From the NCBI GenBank assembly GCA_963802195.1, contig CAWDHP010000003.1:19456-43455 (forward strand): a stretch of 24,000 nucleotides of DNA, given 5' to 3'. This DNA comes from an uncultured bacterium (lineage in GTDB: Bacteria > Patescibacteriota > Minisyncoccia > Minisyncoccales > Minisyncoccaceae). A program made the translations under genes and the position numbers. A model generated the notes under the pieces. The model did not search any database and had not been told where the DNA came from. It saw nothing but the letters and a program-made list of their open reading frames with translations. Shown piece after piece: positions 1-20,178 of this stretch. Position 1 is the stretch's first letter. Every line of letters begins with the position of its first letter.

Positions 1-165
1 CTATTCCTTCAAGAGTTTAGGGGTAAGACAGCTCAAGAATTAAGGGACCAAGTTAGTAGGTTTGTTTCGGACATCGCCCATGGAATATATATAGGTGCTG
101 AACTTTACCGAGCTGAAACTGCTCTAAAAAACAAAACTGAGTTTATCCAAGATTCTGAAGCTTAA
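1..165 (+). CDS. C-terminal fragment of an unidentified protein (gene begins upstream of the window)
   Basis: Frame 1 is open from base 1 to TAA at 163-165 (54 codons, ending ...LYRAETALKNKTEFIQDSEA). It is too short for the ORF track and has no recognisable motif. Confidence 0.3.
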   Translation, partial: LFLQEFRGKTAQELRDQVSRFVSDIAHGIYIGAELYRAETALKNKTEFIQDSEA

Positions 166-692
166 ATTTTACCTCCGGCAAATATCTTTTGTTTGTTTTT
201 AATTTCAAACCTGTTAGCAAAGTGTATTGCTAGCTGAGCAACAGAGAAGAAAATAAATGTGTAAGTTAAATCACCAAGGAAGGTGTTTTTTAAAAATGGA
301 AGCCCTTCTGCATAACACATCATTAATCCAGCAACAGTGTGTGGATACCAATCAGCAAATAACCAAACTGCTCCATTGGTTATTAAAAAGAAAGAAATTG
401 TTCCGACTAAACTCATTGGCAAAGCCCAGAACCATTTTTTGTTTTTAATAGCTATTCCTAGTAAAACAACTAAAGCAAAGGCAAGGTAAACGCTTAATAA
501 TAATTGCCATTGGTAAAAGCCAATAAACCAGTCGCTTAAAAGCATGATAGCCATTGGGACGACAAAGGCAATTCTTTTGTCTTTAAAGTAATATCCGCTG
601 AATAAAGCAATGGCTCCAACAGCAGTAAAATTCATGGGGTGAGGCATGAATCTAGTTAGAAAGCCGATAATAATTAATAGGTAGTAAATCAT
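162..692 (-). CDS. integral membrane protein, DUF6580-like
   Basis: 176-aa ORF, hydrophobic throughout. The N-terminal RFMPHPMNFTAVGAIALFSG resembles the PHPxNF-x-P/A-xGA motif I recall for DUF6580 membrane proteins (recalled, not searched). Its ATG overlaps the upstream HEPN stop (ATGA at 689-692). Confidence 0.6.
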   Translation of the reverse strand: MIYYLLIIIGFLTRFMPHPMNFTAVGAIALFSGYYFKDKRIAFVVPMAIMLLSDWFIGFYQWQLLLSVYLAFALVVLLGIAIKNKKWFWALPMSLVGTISFFLITNGAVWLFADWYPHTVAGLMMCYAEGLPFLKNTFLGDLTYTFIFFSVAQLAIHFANRFEIKNKQKIFAGGKI

Positions 693-1147
693 ATTAGTTT
701 TTTCTGAGGATTTTTATCTTGGATATAATTATGAATTATATTGACAAATTCTTTAGCATTCTTAATGGCTTGATTGGCTTCGGTTTTTGAAACTAACAAT
801 TCTGGTTCATCATAAGTAAAACGATTACGCTTTTTTCTCATTCTATCAAAATATTTAATTATTTCCAAGTGGCTATTTCCTAAAGCCTTTTCGCAGAAAG
901 CAACCACTGTTTTGTGCTGCTCCCCGTCAATGGGTCGGTATTTTAACGAAAACATAAGGGCACGACCAGACCTTAGCATTGCTAAGTAGGCATAGCTATA
1001 TGATACCTCAGTATCTATTTCTAAACTAACCTCTGCGACACGTAAATCTTTTTTTGCTCTTTCTAGATGTTTGACTACTTGGTCAAAACCAATCTCTTCT
1101 TCTTTAATTAATCCTTTTTGTTTATATGATTCTATAAAATCTTTCAT
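689..1147 (-). CDS. HEPN-domain protein, partner of the adjacent nucleotidyltransferase
   Basis: 152-aa helical ORF, translationally coupled to the MNT gene (ATGA overlap at 1144-1147). Size and position are typical of HEPN partners. The expected Rx4-6H site reads RNRFTY (Tyr where His is expected). Confidence 0.6.
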   Translation of the reverse strand: MKDFIESYKQKGLIKEEEIGFDQVVKHLERAKKDLRVAEVSLEIDTEVSYSYAYLAMLRSGRALMFSLKYRPIDGEQHKTVVAFCEKALGNSHLEIIKYFDRMRKKRNRFTYDEPELLVSKTEANQAIKNAKEFVNIIHNYIQDKNPQKKLI

Positions 1148-1686
1148 ACTAATTCTATGATTTTATTGTTCAAAACGTTTTTGACGAAAGAATTAGACTT
1201 TTCTTTTTCTTTAAATTCTTCTTCTGTCATTAGAGTGTAATTTATCTCGCGACTTAATTTATCTTCTAGTTTAGAAATAGAATCTATTAGATTGTTTTCA
1301 TTAATTGTTCCAATGACGAATAAATCAACATCGCTGGTGGGGCGTTCCTTCCCTTGTGCATACGAACCATAGATAAAGGCCCTTTTGATGCCCTTTATCT
1401 TTTCAACTGCACTCCTCAAGCTCCCTTCAATGCCAGTAGTTTTAAAGAAGATGCTTTGTATCTCTTTATATAAAGGATGTTTTTTATTTAGTCTAAAGAA
1501 TCTTCTATTGCCATTATATGAACTTTCTAGGAGTTCCTTTTCATTTAAACTATAAATGTCACGTTGAAAAACTCCAGGCTTTTTATCCAATTTTTTAGCT
1601 AGCTCGCTTAAGTAATATTCTTTTTCTGGGTTATTAAAGAATATTTCTAGTATTAAGTTTTGGTTTTTATTGAAATTTAAATTCAT
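1144..1686 (-). CDS. minimal nucleotidyltransferase (MNT) with N-terminal winged-helix-like domain
   Basis: GSYAQGKERPTSDVDLFVIG matches the GSxxxG...DxD signature of pol-beta-superfamily minimal nucleotidyltransferases. It forms an operon with the HEPN gene. Confidence 0.75.
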   Translation of the reverse strand: MNLNFNKNQNLILEIFFNNPEKEYYLSELAKKLDKKPGVFQRDIYSLNEKELLESSYNGNRRFFRLNKKHPLYKEIQSIFFKTTGIEGSLRSAVEKIKGIKRAFIYGSYAQGKERPTSDVDLFVIGTINENNLIDSISKLEDKLSREINYTLMTEEEFKEKEKSNSFVKNVLNNKIIELV

Positions 1687-1727
1687 ATGCTATTTGCATA
1701 TAATCATATGCAATTTGCATAAGATTG

Positions 1728-2105
1728 TCAACCCTTTCTTTTCCTTGATTCAGCTTCCCTTACTTCTTTTTCATCCATGCCAAAGTGATGAGCAATTTCG
1801 TGCCAAACAGTTTCTTTGACTATCTTTTTTATCTCCCCTTCTGTTTGAGCTGATTGCTCAATAGGATTCTTAAATATTGTTATCTTGTCAGGCAAGACAT
1901 CAGCATAGCCCCACCTTTTTGTTTTAGGAATTCCTTCATACAAGCCAAAAAGAACATAGTTTTTCCTAATCTTTAATTTCTTTAATTGTTCAGGAGTAGG
2001 ATTATCTTCAATCACAATTCCAACATTATCTAACTTGTCTAAGAATTTTTGTGGAATATCTTTAATTCCTTCATTGACTAATTGTTCAAACTTTTCTATT
2101 TCCAT
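1728..2105 (-). CDS. small zincin-like metallopeptidase family protein
   Basis: 125 aa with HEIAHHFG (HExxH zinc-binding motif) near the C-terminus. Confidence 0.65.
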   Translation of the reverse strand: MEIEKFEQLVNEGIKDIPQKFLDKLDNVGIVIEDNPTPEQLKKLKIRKNYVLFGLYEGIPKTKRWGYADVLPDKITIFKNPIEQSAQTEGEIKKIVKETVWHEIAHHFGMDEKEVREAESRKRKG

Positions 2106-2149
2106 ATTATCATTGTATCAAAAAATCGCTGGAATAGCGATTTGTTGTA

Positions 2150-2686
2150 TTAGTGATAAACACAGAAGTTAAATATAATTGGACTTACAATTAAATAGAT
2201 TTGCCAGATAAAAAAGACAGTGAAAGCGATAAAGAAGATAATATTAAATAGTTTTTCTTTTGATTGGTGTTCTTTTCTAATTTCTACGTAACGTTCTCGC
2301 AGTTCTTTGTATAAAGAAAGTCCGAAATTAAAAGCTATATACAAAAGACCAAGAGCTAACAAGTTTTTTAATGCGATATCGCCAGTAATAGTACGATTAG
2401 AGACACTGCAGTATGCTTGGGATAAAAAGATTAATAAAGAAAGCTCGGCTGCAACAAAGAAAAGTGATTTCAATACTGCAAGGCCAGCTCTTAACATAAT
2501 AAATAAAAGTATGATTCCTAGTATTGTTATGCCAATAATCCATACTGTCTCGCCAAAATTATTTCCTAAAAAGAAATAACATCCGATTAAGAATATAATA
2601 ACGACTACAAAAATAATAAGAGAAAGAATATTCTTTTTTGTGGGAGTCATCTTTTCGTTTATCTTTTTGAGTTGTTCTTTTATCAT
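2150..2686 (-). CDS. multi-pass membrane protein, unknown function
   Basis: 178-aa ORF with several long hydrophobic segments. No recognisable motif. Confidence 0.5.
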   Translation of the reverse strand: MIKEQLKKINEKMTPTKKNILSLIIFVVVIIFLIGCYFFLGNNFGETVWIIGITILGIILLFIMLRAGLAVLKSLFFVAAELSLLIFLSQAYCSVSNRTITGDIALKNLLALGLLYIAFNFGLSLYKELRERYVEIRKEHQSKEKLFNIIFFIAFTVFFIWQIYLIVSPIIFNFCVYH

Positions 2687-2703
2687 TATTTTTTAATTAT
2701 TAA

Positions 2704-3186
2704 TTATGGTTCCCAATATTCCCCGCTTCTTAATATTTTTCCTACTCCTATCTTACCATCAAATACAATAATTTCCACTCTTGCCTCTCGAAGCATCGCA
2801 AAAGCAAAGTCTATATCCTCTTGCCAGTGTCCATTCCTATCTAAAGCTTGTTTGTGGATCACTAGCTTTTTAATGCCAGCTTGAATTATAGCTTGAGCAC
2901 AATCACTACATGTTGCCCAGGGACAAACCATAGTGAGTCCTTCTGTTTTTATTCCTAATCTAGCGGCAGAGTAAATAACATTCCTTTCGGCATGAACGCT
3001 GTATTTGTATCTTATGGCTTTATCGTTTTGCCTTTCTTCTGTTTCAGCTATCCCGTTAGGAAAATTATTAGTCTCTGAAAGAATAATATTTTGATTATCG
3101 TCAATTAAAATAGCCGCATTCTGCGTTGATATATTAGTGCTTTTTTGAGCTTTTTCGTATGCTATTTTAAGGAGTTGTTGCCACAT
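2704..3186 (-). CDS. CMP/dCMP deaminase (deoxycytidylate deaminase-like)
   Basis: HAERNVIY (H-A-E) and CPWATCSDCAQAI (PCxxC) zinc-ligand motifs of the cytidine/deoxycytidylate deaminase fold. Confidence 0.8.
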   Translation of the reverse strand: MWQQLLKIAYEKAQKSTNISTQNAAILIDDNQNIILSETNNFPNGIAETEERQNDKAIRYKYSVHAERNVIYSAARLGIKTEGLTMVCPWATCSDCAQAIIQAGIKKLVIHKQALDRNGHWQEDIDFAFAMLREARVEIIVFDGKIGVGKILRSGEYWEP

Positions 3187-3380
3187 GCTGTGATGGTCAG
3201 TCTGGAACCCCTAACCTTCAATCAGTGTAAGAGTTATTTGACTATTTAATATTGATTAATTTGAAGGGTCTCAGTCGGGATAAAATGAGACAAATGAGAC
3301 AGTATAAAAGGATATGTACCCTGTCTCGTGGACACTGTCTCGTTTTTTATAACTTACCATAATTTTTATCTTTGTGAAAG

Positions 3381-3418
3381 AATTGTAAGTAAAAAAAGAA
3401 GGAGATTTTTGATATCGA
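3381..3418 (-). terminator. intrinsic terminator after the radical SAM gene
   Basis: On the minus strand, AGGAGAT (3418-3412) pairs with ATCTCCT (3396-3390) and is followed by a TTCTTTTTTT tract. The same ATCTCCTTCTTTTTT tail recurs at 8769-8784. Confidence 0.6.
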
Positions 3419-3454
3419 AGTATCTCCTATGATTAACTTCGGAAGCTTAAAGCT

Positions 3455-4702
3455 TCAACCCTTAACTGTTTCCCACCCTTTTGGCAATGGCCAGAAAAGA
3501 TGGTTTTTCGCGTAAAATTTGAGATCGGCTAACGTGGGCGCGATGCGGTGGTTATTGAATAAGACCGATGTCTCAAATTCACAACCAACAGTTATTGCGA
3601 CATCTTCAGTCGCGACCTCATTTGGAGGTAACTCGACGAGGTACCCTTCCTCGGTCACGCGAATAGACAAAGGATGGTATCCCAACCATGTGAGGTATTT
3701 TTCAATCTCATCTGGATTAACTTTCCTCCACTGGCCGAGTTCTCCTGAGCGGGATAGGTTGTTGCGATTATATGCAATCGGCATACTGAACTCATCCCGA
3801 TACAATGTACCTGTATGCCGATGAACCCTAACATCGTACATGATTGAGGCACAGAGGACCGCCTTTTCAGCTTTTTCAGACAGCCAGTTTTTCATTTTGT
3901 AATACTGGTGTCCGCCCGGACTTGATTCTTCGTTTTGGTTGCCGTCGAGGAATCCTGTCTCGCGAAGCTTGTCGTTTTCGGGAGTAATGCCGAGATTTCC
4001 GATACTGCAACCACGATAGGTCAGAAATCTGATTCCCATCATTGCCAAATCGAAAATCGTTTCGACGCCCTTCATAACGTTATTATCGTTAAGTGGTCCA
4101 AGCATGACGGAAATCCGTCTTGGGGAAATTCCGGCATCGAGAAGCATCTGAAGACCCTCCAGTTGCTGTGGCGACTTAATCGGACTTCCCCTGAACTCTG
4201 GGCTGTCAGGCGTGATTGTAGTGCTAAACACTACACGAGGGTCATCCCCCCACGCTTCAAGCTGTTTTTGCCCGAATGGGGCACGGTGCAGAACGAAGAC
4301 TGGACTTTTGTGCGGAAATATCCGTAAAAATTCCGTAATTTCATTTACCTGCATGCTTCCGTCAGACCGAGCAGCCAGCATGATAATATCTCGGCCAGCC
4401 TTGAATAATTTGGACTGTTCAAGGAATCGTACCGCCTGTCTTGGCGTTGCAATCTTGCGGAGGCCTTTTCTGCCCTTCCCGATAGTATCAACAGAATTGT
4501 TGATCCATCGGTAATAACAGAAGTCGCACCCGATGGTGCATCCCATGATAAGGTCTCCATCCCAAGTGTACCGCCGTTTATAAAACGGAGCGGGGCAGAC
4601 TTGGCATTCTCCTTTCCATTCTGGCGGGGTGCCACCTAATAAAAGGTGTTCTCCGTTGACTATATCTGCCGCCCTTGCGGCTGAGAAATCTTCAAAAGAC
4701 AT
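3455..4702 (-). CDS. radical SAM enzyme, SplB/COG1533-like (spore-photoproduct-lyase-like family)
   Basis: MGCTIGCDFCYYRW contains CxxxCxxC in the GCxxGCxxCYxR context typical of SplB-like radical SAM proteins. AGGAGG lies 6 nt upstream of the ATG. The start abuts the upstream stop (TAAATG). Confidence 0.75.
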   Translation of the reverse strand: MSFEDFSAARAADIVNGEHLLLGGTPPEWKGECQVCPAPFYKRRYTWDGDLIMGCTIGCDFCYYRWINNSVDTIGKGRKGLRKIATPRQAVRFLEQSKLFKAGRDIIMLAARSDGSMQVNEITEFLRIFPHKSPVFVLHRAPFGQKQLEAWGDDPRVVFSTTITPDSPEFRGSPIKSPQQLEGLQMLLDAGISPRRISVMLGPLNDNNVMKGVETIFDLAMMGIRFLTYRGCSIGNLGITPENDKLRETGFLDGNQNEESSPGGHQYYKMKNWLSEKAEKAVLCASIMYDVRVHRHTGTLYRDEFSMPIAYNRNNLSRSGELGQWRKVNPDEIEKYLTWLGYHPLSIRVTEEGYLVELPPNEVATEDVAITVGCEFETSVLFNNHRIAPTLADLKFYAKNHLFWPLPKGWETVKG

Positions 4703-6457
4703 TTATACCTCCTGTCCCAAAATTGGGGCAATTTCTTTTTTCAATTTACGACCAAGACTAATGGTCTTCTTTGGAGTGATTCCGAACGTACGCATATAGG
4801 TCAAGCGACTAAGGCGTTCATCGGAATTATCCTTGCGGCCGTCTTTGCCGTAAAGAGCAGAAAGTCCATCATCAAGCATTTGGGCTGCGACACCATCCTG
4901 GTACGCAGCTTTGCAAATACTTTCAGAGCATCCTAATGCTTCAGCAATCATCAGCCGGAAAGAAGCCTCCTTCATCACTACCTTGCCCCAGAGTTCTGTC
5001 TGAGTCAGCTCGGTACTGAATTTAGGATTTTCTATTTCTACTTCAAGTCGAGCTGCGAGAATTACTTCACGAACGCGCTCCTCGAAAGTGGTTATACCGA
5101 GTTCGACGGCGATATTTCTTGCTCTTCCAAGGTCGTATGCCGCCTGCTCAATAGTTTGCCATACTCCGTTGATTACCCAGAACGCTGGCGCATAGTCACG
5201 GACTTCGTCCTCATCAATGAGGTCGTCCATGATTTTGAATGCCTTGCGCAGGTGTTCAACAAGCTGGCAGATTTCCTCAACATCCTTTTCGTTCCGTTTT
5301 CCAAGAACAGAGAGTTTTCTCACTTTCTTGGCGTAACTTCCGGAAGTCGGGACATCTATCCATGGCCGCGGGTTTTCAAGACTCTTTTGGTAGAAAGAGT
5401 CGATTGCCCCGACTTTTTCTAACCAATCCATTCTATTAACCTCCACTTTTGTAGCTCCGCGATTCTTTGCCACTTGCACTGCAGCTTGCTGCACAAGCTT
5501 CTTCGTGGCCTCGACTGATTTAGAGGCGAATATCCACGATAATACTTCGTGCATTCCGGAAATTAACCTGTCAGGAAGATTGATGTGGCAAGTATTACCT
5601 TCGTATTTTACCGAACACCCTGTGGTCTTGACGGTAAAGTCAGCAAAGCTCACCACATCAAGGGCGCCGATTTTGCGTAAGAGCTCCAGACGTTCCGAAT
5701 CAACAGAATCGTCAAAGTCCCCGCGCCTCTCAGCTTCCCTCTGTCGTTCATCTTCATCTCTCCTAACAGAGATAACGATTACTGGCCGTTGTAAAGCATA
5801 GCTCGCGTATATGATTTGTTCGCGAGACTTGATGCCATCAACAACCATGAACGGCGAATCGTCATTTACCGAAGAAACAAACCTGCGGGCGACAACAATT
5901 TTGTCTTTCGCCTCAACCTCTTCGGTGAAGCACTGGACATTGGTCCAATTCATTTCGCCATAACGGGATTCTATCTCCTGCTTTACATAGTCTCCCCATT
6001 TGTAGACGGAGAATCCGTCCATCTGGGAAAAAATGTTCCGCAGAAGTGTCTTCCCTGATGCGGGCAGTCCGACCAGTGCAATCATGTACTTATCAATGTG
6101 ATAAGTATCTTGCTCTGATACACTTTCTTTCGGCACAATCCCCTCTTTCTTCAAGAGGTAATTTTGATGTCGATACGCCAGCAATGTTTTTTCGTTGCCG
6201 ACATACTTTACCGGCCCCTTAATACCTAAACTCCTTAACGATTTCTCGACATGGAGCTGGGTTAAGGCCGTGGTCAAATTCCGGTCAAAGACAAGAATCT
6301 CTCCGTACTTCTTTTTTTGTGGAAAGTTCCACCAGGTTACTTCCCTCTGATCCATGCGAGAGAAGTCTGCAATTGCAACCTCCCATTCGGGAGAAAGAAT
6401 ATTGCAATTCAATAACTCCACGCCTGACTTGGCGATTAAAACCGCAAGGGTTTTCAT
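4703..6457 (-). CDS. fusion protein: unknown N-domain, P-loop nucleotide kinase (adenylate/dephospho-CoA-kinase-like) and a divergent polyprenyl-synthase-like C-domain
   Basis: Walker A in IALVGLPASGKT. The block VVDGIKSREQ...RRDEDERQREAERRGDFDD resembles small archaeal-type nucleotide kinases. The C-terminal MDDLIDEDEVRDYAPAFW (DDxxDxxxxR...P) and GVAAQMLDDGLSALYGKDGRKDNSDE resemble the two Asp-rich motifs of trans-prenyl synthases, with the second degenerate. I prefer the ATG at 6457 (GAGG 7 nt upstream) over the TTG at 6499 used by the ORF track. Confidence 0.6.
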   Translation of the reverse strand: MKTLAVLIAKSGVELLNCNILSPEWEVAIADFSRMDQREVTWWNFPQKKKYGEILVFDRNLTTALTQLHVEKSLRSLGIKGPVKYVGNEKTLLAYRHQNYLLKKEGIVPKESVSEQDTYHIDKYMIALVGLPASGKTLLRNIFSQMDGFSVYKWGDYVKQEIESRYGEMNWTNVQCFTEEVEAKDKIVVARRFVSSVNDDSPFMVVDGIKSREQIIYASYALQRPVIVISVRRDEDERQREAERRGDFDDSVDSERLELLRKIGALDVVSFADFTVKTTGCSVKYEGNTCHINLPDRLISGMHEVLSWIFASKSVEATKKLVQQAAVQVAKNRGATKVEVNRMDWLEKVGAIDSFYQKSLENPRPWIDVPTSGSYAKKVRKLSVLGKRNEKDVEEICQLVEHLRKAFKIMDDLIDEDEVRDYAPAFWVINGVWQTIEQAAYDLGRARNIAVELGITTFEERVREVILAARLEVEIENPKFSTELTQTELWGKVVMKEASFRLMIAEALGCSESICKAAYQDGVAAQMLDDGLSALYGKDGRKDNSDERLSRLTYMRTFGITPKKTISLGRKLKKEIAPILGQEV

Positions 6458-7148
6458 TCTAAACCTCGTAATCGTAAGTTGCCATGTTTCAGGCAACAAA
6501 CTAAAGATGTAAATCTCCAGATTGTTACCTGAAACTCTACCTATTTAATTTTCAAACAGCATCCTCCTGCTTCTCTCGGCTCCAATCTCTCCATTGGAAG
6601 CCGAGAGTATAGCAAGGAGGTTTCTGGAAACGAAGCGGGTTAAACTTCCTTTCCAGCCAATCTCCCTACTAGAAGACGGCAAACGATATTAGCCAGTTGA
6701 TAATCTTTTCATTTATACTCTCTCCAGTATGATGACGATTACCTAACATTCTTGCTAAAAGCTAATATCGGACAGGCAGTAATTGGTGTTTTACTGCTTT
6801 AGGACCTTAAGTCTATCACCATAATAGACTTTCGTTCCTTTGATTTTTAACAAAGAGCTATTCTTCTCGAAATTCTTCCGAGAAGATTTTTAAAGATTTT
6901 ATCTTTAACATATCTTTCCGCAAAAAAACGGCTGAGAAATCTCTTCAAAGGACAGACTCAAGATAGAATCCTTCCTTAAAAGAGATCTCCCAGCCGTTCG
7001 AATAAACAACTAGTATCTATTACTCCATTCGGAATGCAGACAGACCTCAGCCTGATTCCTTATCCCTTTCGGGAAAGAAGTAACGGGTCCATTATTTAAC
7101 CTCGCGGACGAGCGAAGAACTAACATCTAATTTAATGAACTCACTTAC
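6458..7148 (-). ncRNA. large structured leader RNA, copy A (paralogue of 10445-11180)
   Basis: About 690 nt between the promoter at 7155-7183 and the kinase-fusion ATG, with no conserved ORF. Hairpins are dense, including a long hairpin at 6929-6996 followed by U7. The core 6614-6846 aligns with 10575-10785 and shows compensatory stem changes. The 5' end is inferred from the promoter only. Confidence 0.5.
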
Positions 7149-7154
7149 ACGATA

Positions 7155-7183
7155 ACTATATACTACTATCTGCTTCTTGTCAA
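7155..7183 (-). promoter_or_regulatory. sigma70-type promoter driving leader A and the kinase-radical SAM operon
   Basis: Minus strand reads TTGACA (7183-7178), a 17-nt spacer, then TATAGT (7160-7155). Confidence 0.65.
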
Positions 7184-7190
7184 CCCCCAA

Positions 7191-7199
7191 TTATCCACA
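7191..7199 (+). promoter_or_regulatory. perfect DnaA-box 9-mer TTATCCACA, 7 nt upstream of the -35 element
   Basis: Exact match to the consensus TTATCCACA. The same 9-mer occurs at the same spacing at 11223-11231 and 11338-11346. Confidence 0.45.
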
Positions 7200-7200
7200 T

Positions 7201-7253
7201 CCTGCTTTCGTCCTTTTGGACTCATCAGCTCGGACACACATCCGAGGAGCAAG
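7201..7253 (-). ncRNA. type III hammerhead ribozyme (HHR-1)
   Basis: Minus strand reads CUUGC-UC/CUCGGA-UGUGUG-UCCGAG-CUGAUGA-GUCC-AAAA-GGAC-GAAA-GCAGG. The full CUGAUGA...GAAA core is present. Stems I and II are closed and stem III is open (CUUGC/GCAGG). Predicted cleavage is after C7247. Confidence 0.85.
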
Positions 7254-7317
7254 TGTAATTTATTTTTTTAAAAAATTACTAAAAAATTAACCCTACTATA
7301 CTGCCCAAGTAATTGGC

Positions 7318-8523
7318 TTAAACATTTTTTACTGTAAATCCAGCATTTTTGAATCCCTCAGCCAAGGACGTTGGTTCATCCTTAATCTGAATATCGTTAA
7401 GACCGAAGATCTTTTCAATCTCGACCTTGGATGGAGTAATGGGTGTGATTCCGTCCCATGGCTCCGTGCGAATGCCGTTGGCTACCCACCGTACATAGTG
7501 GTGGATTCCTCCGGCATTAGCGAGTACATAGGATGTTATTTCTCCATCCTTGTACTCTATCCACGCAGAGTGCCAATCGGGCGCTTCAACGATAGCTAGA
7601 ATACTCTCGCTGTTGAATGGTCTCTCGCAGGATTCCTTTATTCGGGTGATACCCGATTCAGAAATTTTCTCGAACCGGTAGCGCTTGCCACCACCCGGAC
7701 CGATGCAGAGAGATATTAATGCTTTCGTGCCAGGAATCAGTGTGCCAGCTTGCACACTGCTGACGCCACCGATCTTATCGCCCATGACGACGGGAATGGC
7801 AATGCCCCAGTTTTTTACGGTTTGCTCTATCGGTTGCCACTGTGTGAAGTGGTTAACCAGAACATTCATTTCGGGGCTGATTGCTTCCTCAAGTTCTTCT
7901 GCTAGTTTAATCGCGGACTGAACGTCCTCGTGAAGCTCTCCAGTAAACTGCTTTACAACTTCCGTTACCTCGGGATTATCATCAGTGGCGATTGTTTGGC
8001 AGAGTTCTTCGCGGGTCATTGCGACTGCGTTGAAACTCCTAGTCACAATGAGGTAGCGCTGACCGTAGCCTTTGTATGATCCCCCGCAGATGTTCACGAT
8101 GAACACCGATGGAGATTCAATATGCCACAGCTCATCAGTTCCGCCACCAATTCTACCGGCATCGCCGAAGGCATAAGAACCAGTGACTAACAGTTTAGCT
8201 TCGCCACCCTTGTGGACGACATTACCCTCTGTCCCACGGGTGTACGTTCCATACGTGTTTATTCGTATGAGTACACCGCGTTGGTTGGGGTTGCTTTTGG
8301 TCAATATGCAATGCTTCCTTTCCTCCCCAAAGAGGAAATATCCGACATCATCGGGTCCGGACGGTTGTTGTCCGGAACGATTAGAAATTCGGACTTCTTC
8401 AAGCCACCGGCCTCGGCCAGCCTCTCCCAAAGAGAACGGAATCTCCTGGGTCCTTCCGTGCATGTCAATTATTTTCATTCCTTTCACTCCATTCTTGCCC
8501 CTAAAGCGTATCTTCGTGGGCAT
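7318..8523 (-). CDS. hypothetical protein (386-401 aa), no recognisable family
   Basis: Long intact ORF in GC-rich cargo. The start is either ATG 8523 (no SD) or ATG 8478 (GGAGTGAAAGGA upstream). Gly-rich loops are present (GDAGRIGGGTD, CGGSYKGYG, GPGGGKRY). Confidence 0.6.
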   Translation of the reverse strand: MPTKIRFRGKNGVKGMKIIDMHGRTQEIPFSLGEAGRGRWLEEVRISNRSGQQPSGPDDVGYFLFGEERKHCILTKSNPNQRGVLIRINTYGTYTRGTEGNVVHKGGEAKLLVTGSYAFGDAGRIGGGTDELWHIESPSVFIVNICGGSYKGYGQRYLIVTRSFNAVAMTREELCQTIATDDNPEVTEVVKQFTGELHEDVQSAIKLAEELEEAISPEMNVLVNHFTQWQPIEQTVKNWGIAIPVVMGDKIGGVSSVQAGTLIPGTKALISLCIGPGGGKRYRFEKISESGITRIKESCERPFNSESILAIVEAPDWHSAWIEYKDGEITSYVLANAGGIHHYVRWVANGIRTEPWDGITPITPSKVEIEKIFGLNDIQIKDEPTSLAEGFKNAGFTVKNV

Positions 8524-8768
8524 GAATTATGTTTGCTCATTAAGAGCGTACAATTTTAAAATATTATTTAAGACTGTGCGCTCTCAACAAACTCTATTTA
8601 AAGAACTATTATCAATTAAATCAGCAGTGAACCGTAAAGCAATTAGCGAGGGGTTTGAATGTATTATATTCTGGAGAGAGATTAGAATATATCCAATACC
8701 TCTCCTGCTTTACGGATCGCTACTGATTGTTTCTCAATTCTGAATCCACTTTTATTAAAATGAACTCG

Positions 8769-8816
8769 GAAAAAAGAAGGAGATAATGTTTAAACATTTA
8801 ACGGGTCTCCATCTCC
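8769..8816 (-). terminator. intrinsic terminator after the P-loop NTPase gene
   Basis: On the minus strand, GGAGAT (8816-8811) pairs with ATCTCC (8784-8779). The inner palindrome AATGTTTAAACATT is followed by TTCTTTTTTC. The 5' arm overlaps the stop codon. Confidence 0.5.
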
Positions 8817-9403
8817 GTTATCAGCCAATCTGCAAACTGACTAATAATACCCTGATAGGGATCCTTTGGACCGTCTCGGTCCAAATTACAGATAATCCCT
8901 CGAATGGGTTCGGCAGAAAAATCCGCCGAAGATCCTACATTGTTATCAAGCGTCCCATCCGCCCGCTTGATAAGCCGAGACTCAAATAATGCGAGAGTCT
9001 CACACCCTTCTTCTTTGGCAAAATTCTGCCAAAGCTCATTCTCTTCTTCTTTCGAAGAAAGAAGAATAAGGTGCGTTGACCGCTTGAGAATCTCGGCATT
9101 CTCAGCAGTCCGTCTTCCCCCAAGATCTAGGAGGACCAAGGGAAACGATTTTCCCAAGTTCTCAATGGACTTCAGAGTGAAACCCATGAATTCTTGAGAA
9201 AATGCTCCTTTCCTCCGAATTTCAGAGACAAGGCGCGGGTCAGTCTCTGCTGACCACATACCTTCTCCATCGGGACATGCCCTTTGGAGAAAGACTCTCG
9301 TTGCCTTCCTTGCCAAAAGCTGACGATATAGCTCGGCAAGGAAGACTGACTTCCCTGAATGTGGAGGCCCTCCCACGGCCACCACCATTTTTTTAGTGGC
9401 CAT
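8798..9403 (-). CDS. P-loop NTPase of the type found fused to Csx3 (Csx3-associated AAA/kinase-like)
   Basis: Walker A in VAVGGPPHSGKS and Walker B in LVLLDLGG. AAGGAGG SD. The gene lies directly downstream of the Csx3 gene. The link to Csx3-AAA fusions is recalled from the literature, not searched. Confidence 0.65.
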   Translation of the reverse strand: MATKKMVVAVGGPPHSGKSVFLAELYRQLLARKATRVFLQRACPDGEGMWSAETDPRLVSEIRRKGAFSQEFMGFTLKSIENLGKSFPLVLLDLGGRRTAENAEILKRSTHLILLSSKEEENELWQNFAKEEGCETLALFESRLIKRADGTLDNNVGSSADFSAEPIRGIICNLDRDGPKDPYQGIISQFADWLITEMETR

Positions 9404-9462
9404 AGTAGCCTCCTTTAGTGCTTTTTATACTTTTGCACAAAAAGTTTTTTCATTCCCTGATT

Positions 9463-9765
9463 TTACTCAGGGAACGGTATTACATTTCCGACCTGCTGGT
9501 CGGGAGAGTGGGTGGCAACGACCACTGCGCCAAGGCGCGGATCGCGAACTGCCAACCACGGTGTGGCATGGGCAGCATGCACTAACATGCTGTATAGCCA
9601 TACCGGACCCCGTCCGTCAAGGACGATCGGGGTTTCTCCACCGAGCTCACCGAGCTCAGTGACCGCTTCCTGAGATTCCTGGGGAGTTGTTACTCCGCCC
9701 GGAATCTCGAATCCTACCACCCGGATGCCGTTAGCATCACGGGTGGAAAATACTGGTTTCGACAT
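9463..9765 (-). CDS. csx3: Csx3 (Crn3) family protein, distant-CARF ring-nuclease fold
   Basis: LDGRGPVWLYSMLVHAAHATPWLAVRDPRLGAVVVATHSP closely matches the block I recall from A. fulgidus Csx3 (SGRGPIWLHCFLAHKYHHTPFVAVYDPRLGAVVVQSHS). I prefer ATG 9765 (GGGAGG 9 nt upstream) over the TTG at 9792. Confidence 0.7.
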   Translation of the reverse strand: MSKPVFSTRDANGIRVVGFEIPGGVTTPQESQEAVTELGELGGETPIVLDGRGPVWLYSMLVHAAHATPWLAVRDPRLGAVVVATHSPDQQVGNVIPFPE

Positions 9766-9954
9766 TTTCCATACCTCCCGTTTCACCTTCAACGGGGACT
9801 TTGCTCTGCATCATCAAAAGGTGACTTTGATGATGACTCCCTTCATGGGAAGCGAGCTGACTACTTTTATAAATAATCAATTCGCTTTCCATAAAGCAAG
9901 AGTTAAATATTCAAACCTATTTTCCTTTTAATGAGCAACTTATATTTTACAATT

Positions 9955-10007
9955 CTGCTTTTCGTCCTTTTGGACTCATCAGCTCGGATACACATCCGAG
10001 AAAGCAA
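9955..10007 (-). ncRNA. type III hammerhead ribozyme (HHR-2)
   Basis: Minus strand reads UUGCU-UU/CUCGGA-UGUGUA-UCCGAG-CUGAUGA-GUCC-AAAA-GGAC-GAAA-AGCAG. The core is identical to HHR-1. Stem III is UUGCU/AGCAG. Predicted cleavage is after U10001. Confidence 0.85.
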
Positions 10008-10060
10008 TTTGAAGAGGAAGTTTTATATAGCGAGCCCTCTTCGTACCCGCTTTACCCTGG

Positions 10061-10444
10061 TTACCTTCCAGTCGGGAAAATAACCATTTTCCAGGGATCC
10101 TCCCTGTCTGAAACATAGACAGGACGGAATCCCTTCTCCTCTACGACCTTCTGAAAGGCCGGGAGGAGAAACCCTGCCTCTGGCGGGAAGTCCATTAGGA
10201 CCTCCCTCGTTGCCTCATCGGCAAAGAGGAAGGCCTCCTTCATGGCCCTTCCCAGCCAATCGCCGAAACGCTCTGCGCGCTCGACGATTTGTTGCCCTTC
10301 CACCACGTCCATGTGGCGGAAGAGAATCATTTCCTCCAGTTCCACCCGCAGGTGGACTGGAACTTCAGTCAGCGAAAATCGCTGGTGAAGTTTCTCCGCT
10401 CCCTCACGGGGGAGCGGGCTTACCCTTAAGATACTCTTCTGCAT
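10061..10444 (-). CDS. hypothetical protein (127 aa)
   Basis: GC-rich intact ORF. I prefer ATG 10444 (AAGGGGAG about 10 nt upstream) over the TTG at 10495. No recognisable motif. Confidence 0.5.
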   Translation of the reverse strand: MQKSILRVSPLPREGAEKLHQRFSLTEVPVHLRVELEEMILFRHMDVVEGQQIVERAERFGDWLGRAMKEAFLFADEATREVLMDFPPEAGFLLPAFQKVVEEKGFRPVYVSDREDPWKMVIFPTGR

Positions 10445-11180
10445 AATAATGACTCCCCTTCTTTTTCGGTAGAAGTAAACCGGTGCTTTTTCCAAGCAAC
10501 AATCTAGAGATATAAGTCTACAGATTGTTACTTAGAATGATTTTAAAATGAACCACTGACACTCCCTATCTCGTAAGGAGGTTTCTGGAAACGAAGTGGG
10601 TTAGGCCTCTTTTCCAGCCGATCTCCTTACTAGAAGAACGGTATACGATTTTTTAACCTTAGGCCATAACTCTCTCCAGACTTTCTTTGTCGCCTAAAAT
10701 TAATATATCGGACAGGCAAGCAATTGGTTTTTGCTGCTTTAGGACCTTGACCTATCACCATAATAGATCGCGTTCCTTTGATTTTGGTTTAAAGAACTAT
10801 ATCTTCTTTCTTGCGAAAGAAGGTGATGGATATGAGTCTTGTATTGTTTTAGCTCATTTCCATAACTTTCCTTCGTAATATATTGTAAAAGAGGGGGGAG
10901 ATTCAGAGTCCTAGGTGTAAACCCAAGGTTTAGGACGCTGTTCGGCAAGTCTCCCCGCTGCCGCTTCCGAATGGGTCTTCGGAAGAAAGTGGTAAAGATG
11001 ATACATATTCATCTCCACAACTTTCTTTCAAAAGAAAAAGGGGTAACAAATGTTGGGATACTGCATGAAAAGAGTACCTCAACACTTATTACCCCATAAC
11101 GGAATTAAAAGCGTTTATTGGCAATGCCTCTCTCCTTGCATTGACTTGGCTTATTTAATTTTTAATAACTTCATCCTAAC
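10445..11180 (-). ncRNA. large structured leader RNA, copy B (paralogue of 6458-7148)
   Basis: About 735 nt between the promoter at 11187-11215 and the ORF127 ATG. The core 10575-10785 is homologous to 6614-6846. Two long hairpins are followed by U-tracts (about 11036-11095 and 10895-10956). ORF-track ORFs in this region are not conserved in copy A. Confidence 0.5.
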
Positions 11181-11186
11181 AACTAT

Positions 11187-11215
11187 ACTATGACATACTA
11201 TCTATTTTCTGTCAA
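11187..11215 (-). promoter_or_regulatory. sigma70-type promoter P1 for leader B
   Basis: Minus strand reads TTGACA (11215-11210), a 17-nt spacer, then CATAGT (11192-11187). Confidence 0.55.
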
Positions 11216-11222
11216 GCTCCAG

Positions 11223-11231
11223 TTATCCACA
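11223..11231 (+). promoter_or_regulatory. perfect DnaA-box 9-mer TTATCCACA, 7 nt upstream of the P1 -35 element
   Basis: Exact 9-mer at the same spacing as at 7191-7199. Confidence 0.45.
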
Positions 11232-11301
11232 CCCTGATTTTTCTATGAATAACAAGGCTTTTCTTCTTTTCTGCCTCTCCTTTCTTTATCCTTACACCTA
11301 T

Positions 11302-11330
11302 ACCATAGCATAGTAGTATAATTATGTCAA
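11302..11330 (-). promoter_or_regulatory. sigma70-type promoter P2 (tandem with P1)
   Basis: Minus strand reads TTGACA (11330-11325), a 17-nt spacer, then TATGGT (11307-11302). Confidence 0.5.
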
Positions 11331-11337
11331 CACTCAG

Positions 11338-11346
11338 TTATCCACA
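11338..11346 (+). promoter_or_regulatory. perfect DnaA-box 9-mer TTATCCACA, 7 nt upstream of the P2 -35 element
   Basis: Exact 9-mer at the same spacing as the other two copies. Confidence 0.45.
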
Positions 11347-11451
11347 CCCTAGCTATCAAGTTTTTCAGTCTCCACTTTGTCTACATATGGGGTCTGGACT
11401 CCCTAGAGCTATTGCGTCATCCTTGTCCTTGAGATAATAAATAAAAACAAT

Positions 11452-12759
11452 ATGGAACGAATAATAAAAAGTATAAGTCAGTCCCCTATTCTTGATGCTC
11501 CAATCAAGTATTGTCTCTATGCTAGGAAATCGACTGAAGCGGAGGACAAGCAAGCTCTTTCAATAGAATCTCAAGTAAAGGAAATGTTATCTCTAGCCGA
11601 AAGAGACAACTTAGATATAGTTGAAATTAAAAGAGAATCGCATTCTTCAAAGGAAGTCGGACAAAGAGTAGTTTTCAACGAAATGATTAAAGAAATAAGA
11701 GAAGGAAAATATAATGGAATATTAACATGGGCGCCAGATAGGTTAAGCAGAAATGCTGGGGATCTAGGATCGATAGTAGATTTGATGGATCAGAAGCTTC
11801 TTATCGAAATAAGAACATACGGACAGAAGTTTACCAATAATCCAAATGAGAAGTTTCTTTTAATGATATTAGGCTCTCAAGCCAAACTAGAGAATGACAA
11901 TAAAGCAGTCAATGTTAAGCGAGGATTAAGGACTAGATGCGAAATGGGATTAAGACCAGGAGTTGCACCGACTGGCTATCTGAATGAAAAGCATGTTGAT
12001 AAGAAATGCCAATGCAGAATAGATTCTAAAAGAGCACCTATTATTAAACAGATGTTTGAAAAGGTGGCCAACGAGCAATGGAGCGGCAGGAAGATATTCC
12101 GATGGCTGATTGATATTGGATTCAAGACTAAAACCGGCAAGCCTTTAGTTCTTGCCAATATTTATCTCATCTTAAGAAATCCTTTTTATTATGGAGAATT
12201 TGAATACCCAATTAAAAGCGGTAATTGGTATATTGGTAAACATGTTCCGATTATAAATAAAGAGCTGTTTGATAAAGTGCAAATGACCCTCGGTGATAAT
12301 TTCATACCCAAAACAGAAAGCAAGGAATTCGCTTTTACCAAATTAATCAAATGCGGATATTGCGGATCAGGAATATCAGCTGATGAAAAGTTCAGAAAAT
12401 TAAAAAACGGCGGTACTAACCGTCATGTCTATTATTTTTGTACCAAGGCGAGAAATATTGATTGCAAAAATCAGCCGATAGATGAGGCAAACCTAATAAA
12501 CGAACTAGCAGAACTTGTAGACAAGATTGATTTAGATGAACTAGGGATAAGGGATAAAATTGAAAAAGAATTAATGAGATTTAATAAATTTAGAATCGGA
12601 GTGCTTGGGCATAAAAAAGAAGTAAGCAATTCAGATATTGATATCCGTAACTATGCTAAGTATTTATTAAAAGAAGGAACAATTACCGAAAAGCGAGAAC
12701 TCCTATCATTTTTAAAAAGTAAACTGGTATTAAAAGACAGAAAGATTATTCTTGGATAA
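11452..12759 (+). CDS. large serine recombinase (resolvase/invertase N-domain, recombinase domain and zinc ribbon)
   Basis: YCLYARKSTEAEDKQALSIESQ carries the catalytic Ser motif. Also present are GILTWAPDRLSRN and a C-terminal CGYCG...YYFC zinc-ribbon-like motif. The gene is AT-rich (line 12181-12240 has 17/60 G+C) and has no SD, so it is host-like, unlike the cargo. Confidence 0.85.
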   Translation: MERIIKSISQSPILDAPIKYCLYARKSTEAEDKQALSIESQVKEMLSLAERDNLDIVEIKRESHSSKEVGQRVVFNEMIKEIREGKYNGILTWAPDRLSRNAGDLGSIVDLMDQKLLIEIRTYGQKFTNNPNEKFLLMILGSQAKLENDNKAVNVKRGLRTRCEMGLRPGVAPTGYLNEKHVDKKCQCRIDSKRAPIIKQMFEKVANEQWSGRKIFRWLIDIGFKTKTGKPLVLANIYLILRNPFYYGEFEYPIKSGNWYIGKHVPIINKELFDKVQMTLGDNFIPKTESKEFAFTKLIKCGYCGSGISADEKFRKLKNGGTNRHVYYFCTKARNIDCKNQPIDEANLINELAELVDKIDLDELGIRDKIEKELMRFNKFRIGVLGHKKEVSNSDIDIRNYAKYLLKEGTITEKRELLSFLKSKLVLKDRKIILG

Positions 12760-12799: not shown

Positions 12800-12837
12800 A
12801 TGTATGCATCTCAGTCACCTGACTTAGCATAAGACGG

Positions 12838-12908
12838 CTGCGGGACTAGGATTCGGACCTAGATTGGGCGAGTCAAAGTCGCCAGTCCTACCGTTAGACG
12901 ATCCCGCA
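12838..12908 (-). tRNA. tRNA-Gln (anticodon UUG)
   Basis: Manual cloverleaf: acceptor UGCGGGA/UCCCGCA with the U1-A72 pair typical of bacterial tRNA-Gln; D arm GUCU-AACGGUA-GGAC; anticodon arm GGCGA-CUUUGAC-UCGCC; T arm CUAGG-UCCGAAU-CCUAG; discriminator G. CCA is not encoded. The T-loop reads UCC instead of the usual UUC. Confidence 0.8.
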
Positions 12909-17024: not shown

Positions 17025-18480
17025 ATGAAAATATATAATACTTTAACTAAAAAGAAAGAAGAATTTAAATCAATTAAAGACAAAGAAGTCGGAATCTACA
17101 CTTGTGGACCGACTGTCTACTGGTTTGCTCATATCGGCAACATGAGAGCCTACCTTTTTGAAGACACTTTAAAGAGAGTTTTAATATACAATGGATACAA
17201 GGTTAAGCATGTGATGAACATTACTGACGTTGGACATTTAACTTCTGATTCTGATTCAGGAGAAGACAAATTAGAGAAAGGAGCTAGGAAAGAAAGAAAA
17301 TCAGTTTGGGAGATTGCCCAGTTCTATACAGACTTCTTCAAGAAAGATTTAAAATCTTTAAATATTATTGATCCAACTATTTGGGTAAAAGCAACTGACA
17401 CTATCCAAGAGCAGATAGATTTGATTAAAGAGATGGAAAAGAAAGGATTCACTTACATCACTAGCGATGGAGTATACTTTGATACTTCTAAATTAGAGAA
17501 ATATGGAAGACTTATGGGGAGAAAGTGAAAGAACAGAAATGAAAGGCAGGATTGAAGAAGTAAAAGAAAAAAGAAACAAAGCCGACTTCGCTCTATGGAA
17601 GTTCAGTCCTAAAGATGAAAAGAGACAAATGGAATGGGAATCTCCTTGGGGAGTTGGTTTCCCTGGCTGGCACACTGAGTGTGTGGTGATGAGTGTAAAC
17701 AATCTAGGGATACCTTTTGATATCCATTGTGGAGGAATTGATCATATCTTTATCCACCACACTAATGAAATCGCCCAGGCTGAAGCCGTATACAACAAGC
17801 CAATGGCTAATTATTGGATGCACGGAGAATTCCTTAATTTAAAAGATGGGAAGATGTCTAAATCAGCAGGAACAATCATTACTCTTGAAACATTAAAAGA
17901 AAAAGGAGTCAGTCCCCTTGCCTATCGCTATCTATGTTTGAATACTCACTACCGAACTAAATTGTTTTTTAGTGATGAGAGCCTTGAGTTCGCTGAAACA
18001 AGCCTAAGCAAGCTTTACGAAAAAACAGTTGAACTATCTAGAAGTGAAAAGACACCCCATTCAAAGAAATATGAGGAATACAAAAAGAATTTCCTTGAAT
18101 TCATTAATGATGATTTAAATATTCCTTCTGCCCTAGCCTTAACTTGGGATATGATTAAGGACAAGAATATTACTGATTCAGAGAAATATGATTTGTTAAT
18201 TGATTTTGATAATGTCTTTGGTTTGAAACTTGCTTCAATTAAATCAGAAGATAATCTAACTGATTCAAAGTATATTATCAAAACAGAAAAAGATGGCATT
18301 CCTGTTTGGACTAGCGATACTAGTATTGTTCCTGAAGACATAATGAAACTAGTTGAAGCAAGAAACGAAGCAAGGAAGAACAAGGAATGGGATAAATCAG
18401 ATGAGGCAAGAAAAGAGATAGAAGAGAAAGGATGGCAAGTAGAAGATTCAGGAGAGAAGACAGTCATTAAGAAGAAATAA
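17025..18480 (+). pseudogene. cysS: cysteinyl-tRNA synthetase, interrupted by a single-base frameshift at the GGGG run 17516-17519
   Basis: The N-part has [15 protein letters not shown] (HIGH-type motif). The C-part has RNKADFALWKF, PGWHTEC and KMSKS. Two ORFs (17025-17528 and 17503-18480) are in frames 0 and +1. Deleting one G restores ...[20 protein letters not shown]... Confidence 0.85.
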
Positions 18481-20142: not shown

Positions 20143-20171
20143 TTGACGTTTAATTTGTTGTTTGCTACATT
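20143..20171 (+). promoter_or_regulatory. dnaB promoter of leaderless type
   Basis: TTGACG (20143-20148), a 17-nt spacer, then TACATT (20166-20171), followed by 7 nt before the ATG at 20179. Confidence 0.5.
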
Positions 20172-20178
20172 ATACTTA

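Follow-up and report, generated by a model that had tools for sequence, protein, structure and literature searches.

A modular, structured leader RNA in two paralogous copies within a GC-rich island of a Minisyncoccales genome

What is specified by the long non-coding region that separates a consensus promoter from the start of an operon in an uncultured, ultra-small Minisyncoccales bacterium? The region lies at positions 6458 to 7148 of the 24,000-nucleotide stretch of DNA analysed here (the window), and an examination of the letters alone (the sequence-only reading) had proposed that it forms a large structured leader RNA, leader A, with a paralogue, leader B, elsewhere in the window. Comparison with relatives indicates that the central part of the leader, a core of ~235 nt, is a real, conserved, strand-specific multi-helix RNA structure.

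Two leaders and a shared core RNA

When the window was compared with itself using blastn, positions 6614-6867 aligned with 10575-10807 at 72.7% identity over 260 columns (E 3.2e-31), so the two copies matched by eye in the sequence-only reading are indeed paralogous. The best-matching block, 6614-6676 against 10575-10637, was 89% identical. All of the neighbouring genes from 162 to 10495 are carried on the minus strand and both copies sit in units with the same layout on this strand, namely a sigma-70-type promoter, the core and then the first open reading frame (ORF) of an operon. The promoter is on one side of each core copy and a same-strand ORF is on the other, with its start codon 120-300 nt downstream. 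Leader A is ~690 nt long and leader B ~730 nt. The length first given for leader A from consensus promoter to operon start was correct, while the frame check placed the start codon at 6457-6455 rather than at 6458. The core and its helices are located as follows.

6610 to 6843, minus strand: core copy A, ~235 nt, defined by paralogy, 12 homologues, covariation and folding (z -6.7)
10571 to 10781, minus strand: core copy B, found by blastn, by nhmmer (E 2.4e-79) and by covariance model matches of 104 and 89 bits
6834-6838 with 6802-6806, minus strand: P2 of core A, which encloses P3
6811-6829, minus strand: P3 of core A, loop UAUGGUG
6776-6797, minus strand: P4 of core A, loop AACACCA
6684-6770, minus strand: P5 arm of core A, with the apex GGAGAGAG at 6719-6726
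6610-6671, minus strand: 3' domain of core A, comprising P7, P8 and P9, with the loop UUUAACCCG at 6637-6645

A protein-coding or leader-peptide reading of this region was rejected because the ORFs in the leaders are short and unrelated between the copies and because the insertions and deletions that distinguish core A from core B are not multiples of three. No ORF is common to leaders A and B, the longest being 45 and 69 aa. The sequence-only reading had named evidence of translation as something that would overturn it, and these ORFs supply none.

Searches for homologues recovered 12 distinct copies of the core, 66-99% identical, from ~8 related Minisyncoccales-type metagenomic genomes; their loci are given L numbers below. 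Scanning one genome from each GTDB species for an exact 19-mer returned 8 loci, among which only L004 and L008 are true relatives, the other six sharing the 19-mer alone. L008 is a Minisyncoccales metagenome-assembled genome 82-88% identical to the window and L004 is a 655-kb chromosome labelled Saccharibacteria. A metagenome scan returned only the same 656-kb genome. Further loci were found by using neighbouring proteins as anchors in the ENA, JGI and Logan assemblies. The more diverged L020 locus retains a recognisable 3' domain only (nhmmer E 1.4e-8; covariance model 75 bits). The leader found no match in phage and plasmid collections using blastn, nor did exact-pattern scans for its patterns in viral contigs. 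It was also observed that L004, L009, L013 and L014 are one 656-kb genome, deposited in identical or near-identical form under Saccharibacteria, under Candidatus Pacearchaeota archaeon and as metagenome contigs, with a bacterial gene content (MreC, PBP, Mur ligase). The genomes of the relatives carry MreC, a PBP transpeptidase, a Mur ligase and rRNA introns containing LAGLIDADG, and therefore belong to bacteria of the candidate phyla radiation (CPR) despite the archaeal label of one depositor.

The alignment of these copies established the secondary structure. In the tool-made alignment of the 5' half, 91.7% of the cells in P2-P4 hold standard pairs and 8 pairs are double-changed; the covariation score was reached by none of 500 shuffles, and sliding the 3' partners by 1-3 columns reduced the pairing to 33-46%. 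The 3' domain, in an alignment that includes L020, is 96.4% paired in P7, P8 and P9 with 7 double-change pairs (slid controls 41-55%). This makes 15 double-change pairs overall, in 12 copies that all lie in leaders. As all 12 sequences come from a narrow clade, the shuffle statistics exaggerate how independent they are, and more weight can be put on the slid controls and on how many distinct pair types occur. Two of the stems proposed in the sequence-only reading fall in this region and both were recovered: GCAGTA/TACTGC is P4, in which 3 of 7 pairs are double-changed, and the stem around TATGGTG is P3, in which double changes affect 5 of 6 pairs around an invariant UAUGGUG loop and 98.6% of the cells are paired. 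The case for preserved stems with compensatory changes is thus stronger with 12 homologues than it was with the original two sequences. In L020, the most diverged relative, the 3' domain has been kept through compensatory changes in P8 and P9. The P5 arm differs in length and sequence between A-type and B-type cores; it folds in both and its GGAGAG apex is kept.

The core helices contain 35 G-U cells compared with 7 A-C cells, showing that the strand which folds is the strand transcribed along with the genes. The minus-strand polarity originally suggested from a single G-U pair is borne out, and the position and strand of the transcribed RNA are established.

The most conserved positions of the core are the unpaired ones, UAUGGUG, CCUAAAGC, AAC(A)CCAA, CCUGUCCGAU and UAACC. 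Invariant loops and junctions together with covarying stems are a pattern typical of an RNA that binds a ligand or a protein. Two sets of invariant motifs are complementary, the UGGU and ACCA of loops L3 and L4, and UAUGG with CCUAAAG as in an 11-nt receptor. There is no variation in either, and this kissing interaction and the receptor were noted as complementarity and not adopted as pairs. In P7 a strand resembling a Shine-Dalgarno (SD) sequence is paired with one resembling an anti-SD sequence. The ideas of a PyrR site, from the resemblance to AGAGAGGC, and of mimicry of the 16S 3' end were dropped as no model matched and as the SD-like and anti-SD-like strands undergo compensated changes, to GGGAAG/CUUCUU in L025 for instance.

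A search of the window with Rfam 15 at the gathering score found only two tRNAs. Relaxing the threshold to E<=10 over 6400-7350 and 10400-11460 gave only chance-level matches to miRNA and sRNA families over either core, and Rfam found nothing over the leaders of six related loci. This agrees with the earlier failure to match the RNA to any known class, and full-text searches of the literature found no published description of the leader RNA. On this evidence the core is a member of no described family. A T-box was rejected since there was no match to RF00230, the first downstream genes are not aminoacyl-tRNA synthetases and the UGGU:ACCA complementarity is internal to the RNA. An intron or other precise mobile insertion was also rejected, there being no match to an intron model in the leaders and no clean boundaries. 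The same scan detected a group I intron, at 38 bits, in the 23S rRNA gene of a related genome and nothing in the leaders. Comparison of core-less with core-bearing leaders showed replaced segments and no precise insertion, and no rule of a terminal G or a 5' U holds.

Modules around the core

The core is embedded in a series of other conserved modules, which run from the promoter to the start codon.

7155 to 7183, minus strand (read from 7183 to 7155): promoter A, TTGACA-17-TATAGT, 11 of 12 consensus positions, inferred transcription start near 7148
11187 to 11330, minus strand: two tandem B promoters, 11215 to 11187 and 11330 to 11302, each with 10 of 12 consensus positions and an extended -10 TG
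7191 to 7199, plus strand: perfect DnaA-box-like 9-mer TTATCCACA, 8 nt upstream of the -35 of promoter A
11223-11231 and 11338-11346, plus strand: TTATCCACA upstream of the two B promoters, 8 nt from each -35
7000 to 7148, minus strand: 5' domain of leader A, with several helices conserved in an alignment of 7 leaders, among them a tetraloop hairpin, CCC-GAAA-GGG
6922 to 6996, minus strand: T, a hairpin of ~33 bp (6929-6996) followed by U7 (6922-6928), resembling an intrinsic terminator (-48.5 kcal/mol, z -8.7)
11029 to 11095, minus strand: T1 of leader B, a hairpin (11040-11095) and a U5CU4 run (11029-11039) (-31.4 kcal/mol, z -7.9)
6862 to 6921, minus strand: two-state element of leader A, from the covariance model of the 3' domain and pair counts
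6912-6921, minus strand: segment a of this element, GCGGAAAGAU
6890-6908, minus strand: segment b of this element, a hairpin
6878-6887, minus strand: segment c of this element, AUCUUCUCGG
6862-6869, minus strand: segment d of this element, CGAGAAGA
10794 to 10876, minus strand: B-type two-state element, comprising a' CGAAGGAAAG, the b' hairpin, c' CCUUCUUUCG and d' GAAAGAAG, with pairings read from an alignment of 6 B-type leaders
6573 to 6607, minus strand: hp1, a hairpin with the invariant loop (U/G)GGAGAGA, in A- and C-type leaders only (-23.4 kcal/mol, z -6.4)
6486 to 6535, minus strand: hp2 of leader A, a conserved hairpin of ~22 bp, 30-45 nt before the start codon (-29.2 kcal/mol, z -8.2)
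10486 to 10545, minus strand: hp2 of leader B (-23.2 kcal/mol, z -7.2)
6455 to 6467, minus strand: ATG start codon (6455-6457) of the first gene of operon A, which encodes 584 aa, with the Shine-Dalgarno GAGG at 6464-6467; frame verified by translation

The promoter module of leader A recurs at 11169-11235 and 11284-11350. The window contains three exact matches to TTATCCACA, all at island promoters, and the 9-mer is also present at the homologous promoters of L008, L009 and L010. Its role may be that of an operator, bound by DnaA or by some other factor. A replication origin is unlikely since the three boxes are isolated and each is tied to a promoter. An internal promoter belonging to the core itself was looked for and rejected: the sole promoter-like sequence between T and the core matches 3 of 6 positions in the -35 and is not conserved.

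RNAalifold applied to 7 leaders predicted 66 pairs in the 5' domain and T hairpin, of which 14 are double-changed. The hairpin with its run of U7 to U13 was kept in all 7 leaders, in agreement with the long hairpin and U-run recognised in the sequence-only reading ~225 nt after the inferred start, and T1 is retained in the core-less leader of L010. Both T and T1 are stable GC-based hairpins followed by a U-run between promoter and ORF, as an attenuator would require. By their appearance T and T1 are efficient intrinsic terminators, and the majority of transcripts probably stop at them; an attenuator, or a separate small RNA made from the 5' domain and T, fits the data. RNAalifold also pairs CCCGU of the 5' domain with GCGGG just past the U-run, and such a pairing cannot stop T from forming. 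No clear antiterminator competing with T was found.

The stretch immediately 3' of T contains two mutually exclusive pairings, in which segment c pairs with either a or d. The a:c pairing together with hairpin b is a truncated paralogue of the 3' domain of the core. The 3'-domain covariance model matches the stretch after T in A- and C-type leaders (25.7 bits in the window and 33-37 in homologues, E 2e-7 to 3e-4), and therefore the 3'-domain unit has been duplicated within the leader. Pairing is 88.6% for a:c and 98.2% for c:d (6863-6869/6879-6885), the latter with 2 double-changed pairs. The stem CTTCTCG/CGAGAAG of the sequence-only reading is therefore supported and proves to be the c:d arm of a two-state element. 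One G-to-A substitution in segment c of L030 is compensated by a C-to-U substitution in each of its two partners, a and d. The exclusive pairing is kept in A-, C- and B-type leaders, the B-type sequence being different. From these alignments a:c and c:d form a conserved two-state element. When a:c forms, d would be left to pair with a candidate partner e, UCUUCU at 6671-6676, to close the core. This long-range helix, P1, was not accepted as proven because it does not covary.

Leader A continues 3' of the core with hp1, an AU-rich spacer, hp2 and the SD. The lower stem of hp1 covaries among loci around its fixed loop. In hp2, which corresponds to the conserved hairpin noted before the SD in the sequence-only reading, 3 pairs are double-changed, and the versions in leaders A and B (6487-6528 against 10490-10531) are 83% identical by blastn. 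Copies of hp2 are also found alone before other ORFs of related islands (L013 12044-12108; L017 275-331 and 717-778). A scan found no terminator 3' of the core, hp1 and hp2 having no U-run after them. The motif GGAGAGA occurs 10 times in the window where 3.5 are expected, and 4 of these lie in the apical parts of leader hairpins (6586-6592, 6719-6725, 10671-10677 and 11129-11135, minus strand); one leader in L020 has four GAGGAGAGAGUA-like copies. The repeated GGAGAGA may be a protein-binding motif. Between hp1 and hp2, directly 3' of AGGAGG, is a mini-ORF of 5 codons, AUG-YUG-UUU-GAA-AAU-UAA (MLFEN; window 6545-6562, minus strand), that is kept in A-type leaders. Its translation is doubtful since the spacing from SD to AUG is zero.

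The island, its ribozymes and its cargo

Both leaders lie in an island at ~3390-11350 of 41-48% GC, the genome being 30-36% GC. Its borders are a conserved terminator at 3393-3444 and a promoter region beside a large serine recombinase gene (11452-12759) and tRNA-Gln (12836-12908). In related genomes the same non-coding backbone is located at another chromosomal site, upstream of greA, lysS and serS, and has different cargo. Between genomes the non-coding modules are 79-91% identical and the ORFs between them are unrelated. The conserved non-coding parts comprise the promoters with DnaA-box-like sites, the leaders, the hairpins and type III hammerheads. Together these comparisons suggest that the leader unit is part of a horizontally mobile GC-rich island.

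The hammerheads of the window are two.

7200 to 7254, minus strand: HH-A, type III hammerhead-like, immediately upstream of promoter A; Rfam Hammerhead_3 34.1 bits, E 2.3e-5, complete CUGAUGAG...CGAAA core
9950 to 10005, minus strand: HH-B, a second copy 94% identical to HH-A, between ORF B and the Csx3 gene

They are 2754 nt apart and flank the Csx3, AAA-Csx3 and 401-aa genes. Hammerheads are also present in L004, L008, L010, L017, L020, L024 and L030, at the ends of transcription units or directly before ORFs. Among 10 copies, pairing extends to 98.1% of cells and double changes to 9 of 16 pairs; CUGAUGAG and CGAAA are invariant in 9 of the 10, the exception being L004 with CCGAUGAG. The Rfam scores of 34.1, 36.7 and 31.2 bits are under the gathering score of 48.5. 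Similarity to the known type III hammerhead lies in the catalytic core CUGAUGA...GAAA, the three covarying stems with stem III open and the C at the cleavage site. The differences are the scores of 31-37 bits and the minimal stems, with a stem II of 4 bp; cleavage is predicted.

The leader modules are shuffled and the core is not always present. In L010, ~470 nt including the core are missing, while promoter B, the 5' domain, T1 and hp2 are retained and the first gene is the same. A third type, leader C, is found in the 656-kb genome (L013) and in L016. From the promoter through d it shares 80% identity with window 7183-6844, and past d it jumps to hp1 and the SD with neither core nor hp2. In L025 and L026 a B-type front end is joined to an A-type core. 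At L016 5155-5204 a core runs at its 3' end into a hammerhead without the 5' strand of stem III and without the cleavage site; as judged from its sequence this fusion is a recombination scar, showing that modules have been shuffled. The modularity of the leader is established by these comparisons, in which the ~235-nt core is an optional module, homologous leaders existing without it.

The cargo includes Csx3, AAA-Csx3, the combination of an MJ1673-like protein and Csx3, Cys-rich ORFs and others. One group is a trio consisting of a P-loop kinase-like protein of ~350 aa, a polyprenyl-synthase-like protein of ~240 aa and a protein of ~415 aa with a weak radical-SAM match (window 3455-6457, minus strand). 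In the window the first two are fused as the single 584-aa protein that opens operon A, full-length homologues of which are 84-85% identical and 580-601 aa long. The trio is also present in L017, L020, L021, L024 and L025, in a family of 45 members, and adjoins Csx3 and SAVED genes in L020 and L024. This three-gene module may be an uncharacterised defence system. Downstream genes vary among loci and represent no single pathway.

Several other observations were made. A conserved intergenic element, 'X', at window 8595-8784 (minus strand) shares 92% identity with L004 6694-6880 and recurs in L017, L030 and L010; it is a long hairpin enclosing a GGAGAGG...CUCUCUCC stem. Before it there is, by eye, a terminator-like GGAGAU...AUCUCC with a U-run, for which the fold is weak (z -1.1). 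Elsewhere in the window, cysteinyl-tRNA synthetase is represented by two overlapping ORFs (17025-17528 and 17503-18480, plus strand), and the C-terminal domain of DnaB is in its own ORF (20822-21556, plus strand) directly after ORF 20143-20814. These split ORFs could be due to a frameshift, to an assembly error or to a genuine split.

Function of the leader and comparison with known systems

The job of the core is most likely the control of the cargo genes of the island, which are defence-type genes for which a need of tight control is plausible. Our preferred reading, a tentative one, is that the leader is a lineage-specific, cis-acting, multi-domain regulatory leader of a mobile cargo island, with the core as an accessory sensor or effector domain. 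The mechanism that we infer includes termination at T, coupling of the switch to the core, a ligand and an output. A unit would start at a sigma-70-type promoter with a DnaA-box-like site just upstream, and the structured 5' domain, ending in T in leader A or T1 in leader B, would halt most transcripts to give an attenuator or a short 5' RNA. In transcripts that read through, segment c of the bistable element would pair with either a or d. The core (P2/P3, P4, P5 and P7-P9) would fold in a manner coupled to this switch, formation of a:c freeing d to pair with e and so close the core. The conserved loops of the core might then bind a trans factor, protein or small molecule, and such binding would decide what becomes of the read-through transcripts, acting on how the cargo mRNA is processed, how stable it is or how it is translated. 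The last modules before the SD and start codon would be the long hairpins hp1 and hp2. Given that the core follows the terminators and that there is none after it, an output at the level of processing, stability or translation is more likely than one at intrinsic termination.

An aptamer-like covarying domain in a 5' untranslated region (UTR), as expected of a riboswitch, is present in all 12 copies, all of them in leaders. Several points nevertheless weigh against the regulatory leader. The core lies 3' of the terminator and so cannot control T or T1. No expression platform linking the core to the SD was found, and the distance and intervening modules between them vary from locus to locus. 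The d:e pairing that would close the core is invariant, with no covariation, and is weakened in L017. The double compensation at c occurred in a single lineage only. The 12 sequences are from a narrow clade whose shared ancestry inflates the shuffle statistics. Lastly, the downstream genes do not serve one pathway or ligand, and their variety argues against a metabolite riboswitch of one pathway.

Other explanations were weighed against the same evidence. The paralogous copies open successive units of one mobile island, as putL and putR or nutL and nutR do, and the core module is found in many downstream contexts and has been exchanged between leaders. These features recall a processive antitermination element of the HK022 put, lambda nut or EAR type, with the core acting in cis to let RNA polymerase pass terminators and Rho-dependent sites in the GC-rich operon. 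Possible sites of action would be the conserved terminator that closes the island at 3393-3444 and a terminator-like site seen by eye after the AAA-Csx3 gene of operon B (~8765-8815), but the latter has a weak fold (-11.7 kcal/mol, z -1.1). The strongest terminators, T and T1, are upstream of the core and beyond its suppression, no Rfam family shows any likeness to the core, and core-less units carry similar cargo, which leaves antitermination unlikely on this analogy. The near-perfect hairpins of 22-33 bp that flank the core raise another idea, that a stand-alone non-coding RNA is cut from the leader, either at T and hp2 as RNase III-type substrates or by ribozymes, and acts in trans, for example as a sponge or partner of a protein through the GGAGAG loops and the P7/P8 motif. 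The excess of GGAGAGA and its place in hairpin apices, the occurrence of the P7/P8 motif twice per leader, the lack of a fixed downstream partner and the hammerhead remnant abutting the core in L016 agree with this. However, the core has no promoter or terminator of its own and is always sense-oriented just upstream of ORFs, and the L016 remnant is a scar and not a processing site, lacking the strand and site needed for cleavage. A trans-acting product is accordingly an outside candidate in our estimation.

A broader version of the regulatory idea, which we regard as rather improbable, is that the whole island is a mobile cassette system. Its backbone would operate wholly at the RNA level (promoter/operator, attenuator, bistable switch, core, RNase III-type hairpins and hammerheads) and be shuffled around interchangeable defence cargo. 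The core would then be a new ligand-sensing or catalytic RNA class, responding for example to an infection-related nucleotide signal linked to the Csx3, SAVED or viperin-like cargo and turning immune genes on. Catalysis by the core itself, as a new class of self-cleaving ribozyme or other catalytic RNA, is less probable still. Self-cleaving ribozymes tend to cluster in regions of this sort, and on this reading the island already processes its transcripts with hammerheads. Every core has strongly covarying hammerheads at a distance of 400 nt to 3 kb, no variation occurs at its junction and loop nucleotides, and the gene context is variable, as is reportedly so for many bacterial ribozymes. Set against these are a size of ~235 nt that exceeds most self-cleaving classes, the absence of matches to the twister, twister-sister, pistol, hatchet, HDV, glmS and Varkud models, and the failure to identify a candidate cleavage site. 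About as improbable is that the conserved element acts as DNA, its repeats being recombination substrates or folded single-stranded sites that shuffle cargo cassettes with RNA structure secondary. Variable cargo is indeed flanked by direct repeats of 250-800 bp, chimeric leaders (L025, L026), deletions (L010, leader C) and a junction within a hammerhead (L016) exist, and the large serine recombinase gene adjoins leader B. Yet the helices are kept by compensatory changes with a strand-specific G-U bias, the repeats lie under strong promoters in gene orientation, and the 656-kb genome has the island without an adjacent recombinase. Recombination between repeats clearly happens, but is an expected side effect that needs no selection.

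Whatever the core does, this RNA has a narrow distribution and represents a new, well-supported family of structured RNAs. It comes from the CPR/Patescibacteria, a group where regulation by RNA has hardly been explored. What sets the island apart is that its RNA modules are better conserved than its genes, and one leader region joins hammerheads, terminator hairpins, a bistable element and a large folded core before defence-type genes. Should the core sense a signal or catalyse a reaction, it would illustrate how horizontally acquired immune cargo is silenced and then switched on in hosts with very few protein regulators. Infernal searches and probing can build on the 12-sequence alignment and the two covariance models.

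Three groups of known systems can be compared with the leader. OLE, GOLLD, ROOL, HEARO, raiA and the CPR-associated LOOT motif are likewise large intricate RNAs found in mobile or prophage-like contexts or in CPR lineages. The RNA described here differs in matching no Rfam model, in being inside an mRNA leader rather than a free-standing gene, and in being confined to a handful of close genomes. The put RNA of HK022, the nut sites of lambda and EAR resemble it in that paralogous structured elements, which are modular and do not depend on context, lie close to where each unit of a mobile element begins. The put RNA is however ~70 nt with two hairpins whereas the core is ~235 nt with at least 6 helices, the strong terminators here precede the core, and the likeness shown is one of arrangement alone, not of sequence or structure. 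Leaders containing riboswitches or attenuators, including tandem, multi-domain and T-box examples, resemble it in their long 5' UTR, covarying stems and invariant junctions, in having a terminator-like hairpin after a structured 5' domain, in the exclusive a:c and c:d pairings and in the SD-like/anti-SD-like pairing of P7. In contrast to those leaders, the conserved core here comes after the terminator rather than before it, there is no Rfam match and no fixed platform to the SD, the genes are varied and the core is optional. A multi-domain riboswitch or attenuator leader is what this RNA is most like in its predicted working, and its unusual features are the optional core 3' of a terminator, the internal duplication, the conserved bistable element and a conserved non-coding backbone that includes hammerheads.

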